Source of the DNA: Eremomyces bilateralis CBS 781.70
Lineage: Eukaryota
Strand: one strand, 5' to 3'
DNA: 64,000 bases
Assembly: GCA_010015585.1 (NCBI GenBank)
Contig: ML975163.1
Part shown: positions 29,381-31,854 of the stretch, in pieces
Numbering within the stretch: position 1 is the stretch's first letter
How the letters are laid out: each line of letters opens with the position of its first letter
The notes under the pieces: model-generated
What the model saw: the letters and a program-made list of their open reading frames with translations, nothing else
What the model was told of the DNA's origin: nothing
Databases searched by the model: none
Position numbers and translations under genes: made by a program

Positions 29381-31416
29381 TTATGAGGTAGTGCCAGCAT
29401 CAGCACCGCCGCGACCCCCCGGCGCACTCATGCCTCTTCCTCTTCCAAATCCTCGCCCACGTCCCCGGCCGCGACCACGACCTCGGAACCCTCCGCGCGA
29501 ATCAACGCTGCCCTGTCCAAACGTCTCCATATTCCGTCGGCGTTCTTCAGTCCGCATATCTCGGACGTCTTTCCTCTCCTCGCGGTCTCGCCGGTCCGAA
29601 CTCAAGTTGTCGAAGAAGCTTGAGCCCTTGTCATAAGCAGGCGCCGGGGGAGGAATCGTAACGTCATCAGACTTCGTTTCGCCCTCTGTTCCGTTCGTCG
29701 ACTTCGACTCGCCGTTCTCAATGGTAGAGTTCGCATTAATAGGACTCTCACCAAGGGGTGACCCTGTAGCAATGGCCTCTTTGGCCAAGTCGAGCTTGCT
29801 GAATTTCTTGTTTGCGCTTTCAAAATCAAAGTCGGGAGTGGTCTCAATCTTTGGACCTGGTACATGATGGCCGCTCGGACCACTGCCGCGTCGAGCACCG
29901 CGTCCACGGGCCGGGAATGTTGATGGTCCAGTAGAACCTGTGACTTGTGATCTTGGATCGCCAGCGGCTTGAGCAAGGATTTTTTGACCCGGCGCAGCGG
30001 GAAGCTTGGCCATGGCGGCGGCAACGGCCGCTGTAGCTGCAGCGGTTGCGTTCTGGTATTGTTGCGTCGCTGTAGCAACTGCTTGGCTAGGTTGGGTGGC
30101 GGGTTTCGTAGACTGTGTGACAGCAGCCGGAGGTTTGGCGACCGCACTAGGTATTGGGACCGCGGGAACTATGCGGTTACCTTTCGGCCCCGTGGGGATT
30201 GTCTTTGTCGGGGCGGATGGTTGAGCAGGAGCTTGAGCCGTAGGTGCCTGAGAGGGAGCCAGTGCAGATGTAACATCAGGCTTTGACTCAATAGGCGGCG
30301 CAGGTGCTTTGTTCGGCGGCGCTTGTGAAGGAGTAGGCTGGGTAGGAGTACCTCGTCCCTGCGGTTTTCTAGTTGCAGCAGGCCTTGGTTCTGATGGCTT
30401 CGATGGGGCATTCAATTCGGCCGGCTTTGTTTGTGCCTGCGTTGCCGGGCCCGCAGTAGCTTGCCTAGACGACGGTCCTTGATCTGGTTTCTGGCCCTGC
30501 AAATCTTGCTGAGCCTGCTGCTGTTGAGCTGGAGCCCCGGGAGGTAGTTGCGAGGGCTGGTTCGGGAAAGGTCCCGGTGGAAAACCTTGTCCTGGAGGGG
30601 GATACCAACCAGGAGGTGGAACTCCAGGCGGGGGGGCTCCATACGGCATGCCTGGATATCCAGGGAAGCCACCAGGACCACCAGGACCGCCCTGGAACCC
30701 ATCAAAGGGGGAGCGATTGCCGGGAAACGGAGGATATCCATAAGGATTCGGAAATGGAGGCGGAGAGTTGAAATTGTTAGGCGGGGCTTGTTGGTTCGAT
30801 GGCGGCCCAGGTTGCTGTCCCTGGAGTTGTGATGGACGGGCGGACTTGACAAGTCAGTACAATTCATCCTTGATAGTGGATTACAGGAAAGACAAGGTAT
30901 GTTGCTGTTTCAGAAGGAAGGCAACGGTTCTTTCAACATGTGTGATTCAGTCGAAATAAAAATCCGTATTTTCATCATAGTGCATTGAAGGTGCTTGGGA
31001 GACGGGCTGACTTACTCCGAGGATAGCAGGGTCGTTGGGCACCTGGGGTGGCGGCGGCTGAGGTTCTTTAGGCGCGTCTTCAATTGACAACTCCTTCACA
31101 TCACTGCCGCGGAATACGATGTACTCGTATATGGCCTCCATTGGAGGCACCTCGTCGACTCCATTCCGCCGCCCTTCGGTGCCAAATGATCTGACATTCT
31201 CTAGGGCGACGGTATGTTTGTCTGAGTTGATCTCATGAAGCGTCCCTCGATAGCTAGGTCGAACCGTGAGCTAGGTACACTCATATCCGGTAGCATACTG
31301 ACCGTATATCGCTCTTCGATATCAGCGAGATCACCGATCTGTGCAATTGAACCGTTAGCGTTTGTATTGAGCTTTTCAGCTGTCGCGAGGTCCACATACC
31401 CGATGAATTCTGACAT
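29381..31416 (-). CDS. SCD6: Scd6/LSM14 (Sum2/RAP55) P-body translational repressor, 4 exons
   Basis: MSEFIG/SVISLISKSDIR/YRGTLHEIN...VRSFGTEGR...YIVFRGSDVK Lsm domain; DFDF, FFD and TFG boxes; RGG tail; third intron 31015-30845 keeps the frame. Confidence 0.95.
30905..30984 (-). ncRNA. Intronic box C/D snoRNA, snR52-like (predicted guide for 18S Am420, yeast numbering)
   Basis: Box C ATGATGA 30978-30972, D' CTGA 30950-30947, C' ATGTTGA 30939-30933, D CTGA 30913-30910; guide GTTGCCTTCCTT pairs with conserved 18S AAGGAAGGCAGC; sense orientation in SCD6 intron 3. Confidence 0.85.
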
Positions 31417-31693: not shown

Positions 31694-31854
31694 CTCCCTG
31701 CCTCCCATCCCTTCCAATTCTCCAACACACGGCCACAAAGGTGGTTGAATCTTGATACGTGTACAGAATAGGATGCGAGTACTTAGCATTGGGGGTGAAC
31801 CTGTATCCCTCTTTTGAGCTTATCCACCTTGGCATTTCTTGATTTATGTGAATC

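Follow-up and report, generated by a model that had tools for sequence, protein, structure and literature searches.

SCD6 and its third intron

The window analysed here is a 64,000-nucleotide (nt) stretch of contig ML975163.1 of Eremomyces bilateralis CBS 781.70 (GenBank assembly GCA_010015585.1). On its minus strand lies a gene of the SCD6/LSm14 family, the third intron of which very probably encodes a box C/D small nucleolar RNA (snoRNA) of the snR52 type, a methylation guide for 18S ribosomal RNA (rRNA). The coding part of the gene spans positions 29381–31416 and starts with an ATG at 31416. Its exons, stop codon included, are placed at 31400–31416, 31303–31338, 31016–31253 and 29381–30844 by the splice joints of an RNA-type contig. 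Exon 3 encodes an LSM14 (Scd6-like Sm) domain (Pfam, E 2.2e-23), exon 4 an FDF domain (Pfam, E 6.6e-11), and the listing of open reading frames (ORFs) reveals RGG-rich repeats at the C-terminus of the product, a combination that assigns the gene to the SCD6/LSm14 family.

The joints are found in a 1866-nt RNA-like contig of run X3, which skips 30845–31015 (171 nt), 31254–31302 (49 nt) and 31339–31399 (61 nt). Run X3 was tentatively taken as RNA from the look of its contigs; none of the sequencing runs listed is recorded as RNA, and runs X4 and X5 contributed no contig here. All three skipped stretches read CT..AC on the plus strand, that is, GT..AG on the strand of the gene, and the DNA run X1, possibly the source of the window, is collinear with it. 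The X3 joints with their GT..AG ends confirm a length of 171 nt for intron 3 (30845–31015, minus strand), which is about threefold that of the other two SCD6 introns, as had been claimed in a first-pass annotation of this DNA made from the sequence alone. Intron 3 begins with the 5′ splice site GUAAGU, carries a branch-site-like motif, UACUGAC, at 30859–30853 and ends in AAG.

A predicted snR52-type snoRNA within intron 3

The predicted box C/D snoRNA is about 80–85 nt long and occupies approximately positions 30902–30986 of the minus strand, its ends being predicted from a match to the Rfam family RF00335. Box C (AUGAUGA, 30972–30978) is evident from the sequence and from the Rfam alignment and lies near the 5′ end, where UGC (30982–30984) pairs in the Rfam alignment with GCA (30903–30905) to form a 3-base-pair (bp) terminal stem; box D (CUGA, 30910–30913), identified by sequence and by the 16-mer scan described below, lies near the 3′ end. 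Box C is followed by ACGGAUUU (30960–30967), identified by alignment A1, which comprises the window and 44 distinct homologues (45 sequences), as this copy's version of the family element (U)CGGAUGU. A U/A-rich spacer, UUAUUUCGA (30951–30959), then leads to box D′ (CUGA, 30947–30950), which aligns with CUGA, CCGA or CAGA in the homologues. Box C′ (UGUUGA, 30933–30938) stands 8 nt from box D′ and has the same form as in Nc CD42 of Neurospora crassa. The D guide GUUGCCUUCCUU (30914–30925), identical to that of Nc CD42, directly precedes box D, and its start is overlapped by the tetranucleotide CCGU (30924–30927). The order C–D′–C′–D is thus respected on the sense strand, in agreement with the first-pass annotation, and all four boxes are canonical.

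Within the intron, the snoRNA lies ~29 nt past the 5′ splice site, ~47 nt ahead of the branch-site adenosine and 57 nt ahead of the 3′ splice site. Hirose and Steitz are said to have found an optimum of ~50 nt for the placement of intronic box C/D snoRNAs. The spacing between the snoRNA and the splice signals agrees with the placement reported for such snoRNAs by Liu et al. 2009 (PMC2780460).

The best Rfam match of the RNA is RF00335 (snoZ13_snr52), which aligns over its whole model (1–101) with 35.8 bits (E 4.5e-5 in a 501-nt search). When 4227 Rfam families were compared with the entire window in a permissive scan, RF00335 was the sole match with an E-value of 0.5 or lower (E 0.0057). A default scan of the window at gathering thresholds lists nothing, because the RF00335 score lies below the gathering score of the family; this score is a curated cut-off and no biological feature, and by the rule of Rfam the RNA is sub-threshold. 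A comparison with Rfam had been proposed in the first-pass annotation, and the snR52-like family that it had named is thus the one recovered. Weaker matches to U83, U83B and snR52 have the same guide in common. The 16-mer composed of guide and box D occurs a single time in the window; when up to two mismatches are tolerated, shuffling leads one to expect 0.08 matches, and 8 of 100 shuffles contain at least one. On these sequence grounds, we regard it as very likely that the RNA is an intron-encoded box C/D snoRNA and the orthologue of Nc CD42, of Afu-200 from Aspergillus fumigatus and of yeast snR52.

The D guide and its 18S target

The D guide forms 12 bp, one of them G-U, with the 18S stretch AAGGAAGGCAGC in 3/3 complete eukaryotic 18S sequences, with a duplex energy of −22.3 kcal/mol. 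Its fifth position lies opposite an adenosine in each of the three (A416, A416 and A424). These pairings support the proposal that the guide points to the adenosine equivalent to Am420 of yeast 18S (A417 in N. crassa, A415 in A. fumigatus). Both the pairing and the equivalence to the yeast site had been put forward in the first-pass annotation, and the published counterparts bear this out, since the same guide is listed for 18S-Am417 in Nc CD42 (Liu et al. 2009, PMC2780460) and labelled S420 by van Nues et al. 2011 (PMC3116282).

The rRNA sequences were taken from a scan of prokaryote assemblies with the ITS4 primer and annotated with Rfam, and the target set comprised 18S, 5.8S and the large-subunit rRNA (LSU) up to model position 2289 of 3401, that is, its first two thirds. 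Run on prokaryote species-representative genomes, the ITS4 scan found at least 60 loci (L121–L180), many of them bacterial assemblies or metagenome-assembled genomes with eukaryotic ribosomal DNA (rDNA), for example at L137:1278-3072, L158:1519-3314, L143:1208-3015 and L128:165-2419. The presence of eukaryotic rDNA contigs inside bacterial assemblies looks like contamination. A scan of viral contigs for rDNA with the LR0R primer gave 3 loci, just one of which contains LSU (103 nt), and a scan for rDNA with the LR11 primer gave 0 loci.

Homologues and the conserved host intron

A metagenome scan with the 16-mer of guide and box D found at least 117 loci with at least 121 matches. Matches were called snoRNA-like when, 35–85 nt upstream, they had a box C that deviated at no more than one position and was followed by GGAU. 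Among the matches listed, this rule flagged 52 matches in 50 loci, or 49 loci once L041, which passes the rule and is a false positive by eye, had been dropped. The remaining 67 of the 117 listed loci fail the rule, and most of them look bacterial or otherwise unrelated; L011, L013 and L077, which are among them, are truncated on the upstream side. Of the homologues, 20 loci were compared with RF00335, the family that best matches the window RNA, its gathering score being reached by 19 of them (47.6–95.3 bits) and missed by L025.

An LSM14 exon lies on the same strand 93–272 nt upstream of the guide in 32 of the 49 snoRNA-bearing loci among the matches listed. When exon 3 of the window was used as a tblastn query, 31 of these 49 loci aligned as far as residue 78 or 79 of its 79 residues, the alignments ending 93–262 nt before the guide. 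Since the alignments extend to the last or next-to-last residue of exon 3, the position of the intron is identical in the 31 loci. The 32nd locus, L079, is recognised by its own ORF, which Pfam calls LSM14 with 30.5 bits (cut-off 30); L012, L096 and L108 contain ORFs that resemble that of L079 by eye, and L069 gives a weak match only. The recurrence of the LSM14 exon in 32 of the 49 listed loci indicates that the SCD6 host intron is old and widespread and, as judged from these loci, it is the usual and old home of the snR52-type snoRNA in filamentous ascomycetes. A literature search by Scd6 and by the A. fumigatus locus tag found no fungal paper that states the association between the snR52-type snoRNA and the SCD6 intron.

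Copies of the snoRNA are also found in other settings. In L015, L076 and L084 it lies ~530 nt downstream of an ORF for eRF1 (eRF1 domains 2 and 3) and bears an snR56-type D′ guide, CACAGACCUGU. L009 carries an snR52-type copy within a DUF2408 gene, between two ORFs of the protein. Two copies, 226 nt apart, lie behind a DUF5321 gene in L078, and L025 has two pattern matches 327 nt apart. Second RF00335 matches were found in L042 (986-1098, minus strand, 55.2 bits) and L075 (764-871, plus strand, 35.6 bits), in both cases 250–350 nt upstream of the copy with the guide pattern. Some fungi (L042, L075, L078 and L025) would thus have tandem snR52-type copies outside SCD6. L025, L042, L075/L085, L101/L105, L104 and L107 were left without host assignment. 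Six further loci (L001, L008, L031, L050, L063 and L065) combine a box C, the same 18S guide and a box D with a different interior that has no GGAU, and probably represent the equivalent RNA in other lineages of eukaryotes.

The stretch between box C and box D′

Alignment A1 of the snoRNA copies reveals which parts of the RNA are conserved. The invariant columns of A1 are the box C core, GGAU (45/45), most of box C′ and the guide with box D, the invariance of the last two having been fixed beforehand by the search pattern. By contrast, the 10–25 nt that precede box D′ are hypervariable, with hairpins in several loci, and the nine nucleotides ahead of D′ in the window, which form the 3′ part of the D′ guide proposed by the first-pass annotation, are shared with none of the 44 homologues.

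Two kinds of pairing involve the conserved element after box C. CGGA is present in 41 of the 45 sequences, and 40 of these 41 have UCCG next to the guide, an arrangement that RF00335 models as an internal stem. UGGA takes its place in the other 4 sequences, 3 of which have UCCA as the partner, and this represents a compensatory change, probably a single event. In addition, GGAUGU, found in 36/45 sequences, is complementary to the ACAUCC located immediately before the target in each of the three 18S sequences, and it is described as an extra pairing with 18S 410–415 in the supplement of van Nues et al. 2011 (PMC3116282, Suppl. 1 p.15). In the window, GGAUUU retains four contiguous pairs plus one with ACAUCC. 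The CGGA of the window faces ACCG rather than UCCG, so that the outer pair is marked as non-standard in the Rfam alignment; a shifted pairing of ACGG with CCGU could give a 4-bp internal stem instead, and this stem is seen in the computed fold.

The possibility that CGGAUGU acts as a D′ guide served by a cryptic D′ box was considered and rejected: only 6–7 nt are conserved, and the published extra pairing, together with the internal stem, already accounts for them. A second methylation guide is most likely not what the sequence from box C to box D′ contains here. The "orphan second guide" of the first-pass annotation does not stand under that name, as its 5′ part, CGGAU, belongs to a family-wide conserved element that is annotated in the literature as extra pairing to 18S.

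Alternative readings

A larger role would fall to this region if the snoRNA were a double guide, in which the D′ stretch ACGGAUUUUUAUUUCGA directs a lineage-specific methylation in addition to that of the 18S site, with LSU G1907 and an adenosine of 18S GGAAGUAAAAGUC, near the 3′ end, as candidates. The D′ and C′ boxes are canonical, and the D′ region of the family is known to switch targets, being directed at 25S U2921 in yeasts and at 18S G1428 in Eurotiomycetes (van Nues et al. 2011, PMC3116282). Afu-200 is assigned the two targets Am415 and Gm1422 (Joechl et al. 2008, PMC2377427), snR52 and snR56 have been merged into clan CD_19 owing to target switches (Canzler et al. 2018, PMC5824354), and an snR56-type guide is present in L015, L076, L084, L090 and L106. 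The D′ stretch of the window forms 14 bp with LSU UCGGGAUAAGGAUU in L128 and L163, where its fifth position falls on G1907 (N. crassa numbering), the nucleotide predicted for Nc CD16 by Liu et al. 2009 (PMC2780460), and 12 bp, two of them G-U, with 18S GGAAGUAAAAGUC. However, these candidates are at chance level: the best count-based score is reached by 9 of 200 shuffled guides and the best duplex energy, −13.6 kcal/mol, by 41 of 60, so that in the 18S, 5.8S and first two thirds of LSU of other eukaryotes no target of the D′ stretch rises above shuffled guides. The LSU duplex, moreover, contains 5 G-U pairs among its 14, one of them at the methylation position, and is one pair shorter where A replaces U at 1909 (L124 and L142), and the stretch adjoining D′ is common to none of the homologues in A1. 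The fits to LSU G1907 and to 18S GGAAGUAAAAGUC are leads only. We consider a double guide with a lineage-specific second target unlikely, and a re-use of the D′ region in this lineage for a target of its own, with LSU G1907 in the loop UUCGGGAUAAGGAUUGG as the best fit, quite unlikely. If true, such re-use would be one more target switch of the snR52/snR56 clan, and the snoRNA carrying it would be a shortened one, overlooked in standard Rfam annotation. What the first-pass annotation said of the D′ stretch, namely that it fails to match the 25S target of yeast and is perhaps unused, is borne out: in the rRNA sequences searched no target beats the shuffles, and the stretch is not conserved in A1.

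Several observations weigh against the reading of the RNA as an intron-encoded snR52-type snoRNA. Its score of 35.8 bits falls short of the curated RF00335 gathering score of 47 and is the lowest in the comparison with the 19 loci that reach it, among them the short forms L022 and L024 with 49.1 and 47.6 bits, the latter being the lowest of the 19. Within A1, GGAUUU is peculiar to the window (1/45), the others having GGAUGU or a near variant; the window copy is also the sole CGGA copy without UCCG adjoining the guide, and it lacks the AGCGCAAA element ((A/U)GCGCAAA) that is conserved to at least 90% between D′ and C′. The X3 contigs represent spliced mRNA only and leave the intron without cover, although contigs cannot reveal a small RNA, and the 18S target was checked on the 18S of other eukaryotes, obtained as rDNA within prokaryote assemblies. 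The low score, the lost AGCGCAAA element, the weakening of CGGAUGU and the missing UCCG partner would also suit a decaying or non-functional copy in a lineage where the 18S methylation has been lost or is guided from another locus; such a second locus is conceivable because extra copies lie outside SCD6 in other fungi (L009, L015/L076/L084, L078 and the second copies in L042 and L075). Decay is nevertheless very unlikely, as the four boxes are canonical, the 16 nt of guide and box D equal the family consensus, the shifted ACGG/CCGU stem would preserve the internal pairing and the intron retains both its unusual length and the usual distance between snoRNA and branch site. Indeed, other short forms from which GCGCAAA is absent (L022, L024/L061 and L095) all occupy the same SCD6 intron. 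It is hardly credible that the boxes are a chance array of box-like motifs in a long intron that contains no RNA gene. Box motifs are short and common, and neither the intron nor the snoRNA folds with a better energy than its shuffles (z −0.62 and −0.33, respectively), but stable folding is not expected of box C/D snoRNAs. Rather, the 16-mer is exactly identical to a published guide and box D, the covariance model matches over its full length with an E-value of 0.0057 for the whole window, and host gene and intron position recur in the 31 listed metagenomic loci. Together with the RF00335 matches of the homologues, these results in effect refute a chance array.

Proposed maturation and function

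For the snR52-type snoRNA, we suggest the established route of intronic box C/D snoRNAs, from which the following steps are drawn. The snoRNA would be transcribed within the SCD6 pre-mRNA, and Snu13, Nop58, Nop56 and fibrillarin/Nop1 would assemble on the C/D and C′/D′ motifs. Splicing and debranching, followed by exonuclease trimming, would then leave the protein-protected RNA of about 80–85 nt. The 12 nt upstream of box D would pair with 18S AAGGAAGGCAGC, enabling fibrillarin to 2′-O-methylate the adenosine opposite the fifth guide nucleotide. The CGGAUUU part may act as a weakened family element that pairs with the 18S ACAUCC by the target, with the CCG(U) before the D guide, or with both, and the remainder of the stretch between box C and D′ may serve as a spacer that holds the C′/D′ motif in place. 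We infer that the predicted snoRNA is expressed and processed and that it guides the 18S methylation. The tie between rRNA methylation and Scd6 splicing drawn in the first-pass annotation amounts to no more than the general reliance of intronic snoRNAs on the transcripts that carry them.

On the plus strand, an ORF that starts with ATGACGACCGAA runs from position 31848 of the window onward, ~430 nt from the start codon of SCD6. The two genes appear to be transcribed divergently.

Comparison with known counterparts

The window RNA is real but ordinary: its family is well described, the host intron is the usual one, and the copy itself is slightly degenerate. What it contributes is a further orthologue of a well-described methylation guide, divergent and shortened, which is missed at the curated Rfam threshold. 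Together with the metagenomic loci, it indicates that many filamentous ascomycetes have kept an snR52-type snoRNA in this one intron of SCD6. The D′ region is known as a hotspot for switches of target, and the window copy represents one more state of it. Outside annotation the significance is slight, and no open question is made testable by this copy.

Yeast snR52 is an independent gene and an RNA polymerase III transcript, whereas the window RNA lies within a spliced intron of an RNA polymerase II transcript. The two share the D guide and the 18S target (S420 in van Nues et al. 2011, PMC3116282, Suppl. 1 p.15). S. cerevisiae snR52 also guides methylation of 25S Um2921 with its D′ guide GUGAACAAUC, whereas the window RNA has no guide for 25S-2921 and is snR52-like at the 18S site only. 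The alignment to RF00335 is full-length and includes the terminal stem and the internal CGGA/UCCG stem of the model, the outer pair of which is non-standard in the window; the score stays below the gathering score. From the snR52 sequences of about 30 Pezizomycotina aligned by van Nues et al. 2011 (PMC3116282), the window RNA departs in having GGAUUU rather than GGAUGU and no (A/U)GCGCAAA.

The human counterpart is given as SNORD83A/B (U83) by Liu et al. 2009 (PMC2780460). The window has sub-threshold matches to both SNORD83 families (RF01179 and RF00593) that share the UGCCUUCCUUCUGA end; with 24.0 and 22.1 bits these matches lie far under threshold, and the likeness is confined to the guide end and the layout of the boxes. 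Where the fungal copies have CGGA...UCCG, the Rfam consensus of SNORD83 has a UGGA...UCCA or GGAAU...AUUCC pairing.

Among filamentous ascomycetes, intronic counterparts were published for A. fumigatus in 2008 and for N. crassa in 2009, so that an snR52-type snoRNA in an intron is neither "hidden", as the first-pass annotation had it, nor new as a kind. Afu-200 (AM921928) was cloned as a 91-nt cDNA and is listed under "Intron 3 (sense); Afu1g12390" with the 18S targets Am415 and Gm1422 (Joechl et al. 2008, PMC2377427). Like the window RNA, it is a box C/D snoRNA in the third intron of a protein gene and is assigned the equivalent 18S site, Am415. It differs in being a double guide that reaches 18S Gm1422 through an snR56-type D′ guide, for which the D′ stretch of the window has no counterpart. 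A literature search for a gene name for Afu1g12390 found none; since the Eurotiomycete-type double guides L090 and L106 sit behind an LSM14 exon, as does the window copy, Afu1g12390 would be the SCD6 orthologue of A. fumigatus. A further close counterpart of the window RNA is Nc CD42 (EU780965), a 92-nt RNA from chromosome II that carries the entry "Intron" and the detection codes N and R in Table 1 of Liu et al. 2009 (PMC2780460), where snR52 and U83 are listed as its homologues, its pairing is printed and a D guide for 18S-Am417 is the only guide assigned, with no D′ target. Nc CD42 has retained CGGAUGUAAAA as well as the AAGCGCAAAAAC element between D′ and C′, whereas the window RNA, at about 80–85 nt, lacks the AAGCGCAAAAAC element and has CGGAUUU. 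Beyond these differences, the two RNAs are alike in their intronic location, in the order of their boxes, in D′ (CUGA) and C′ (UGUUGA), in the CGGAU that follows box C and in the D guide GUUGCCUUCCUU for the 18S site.

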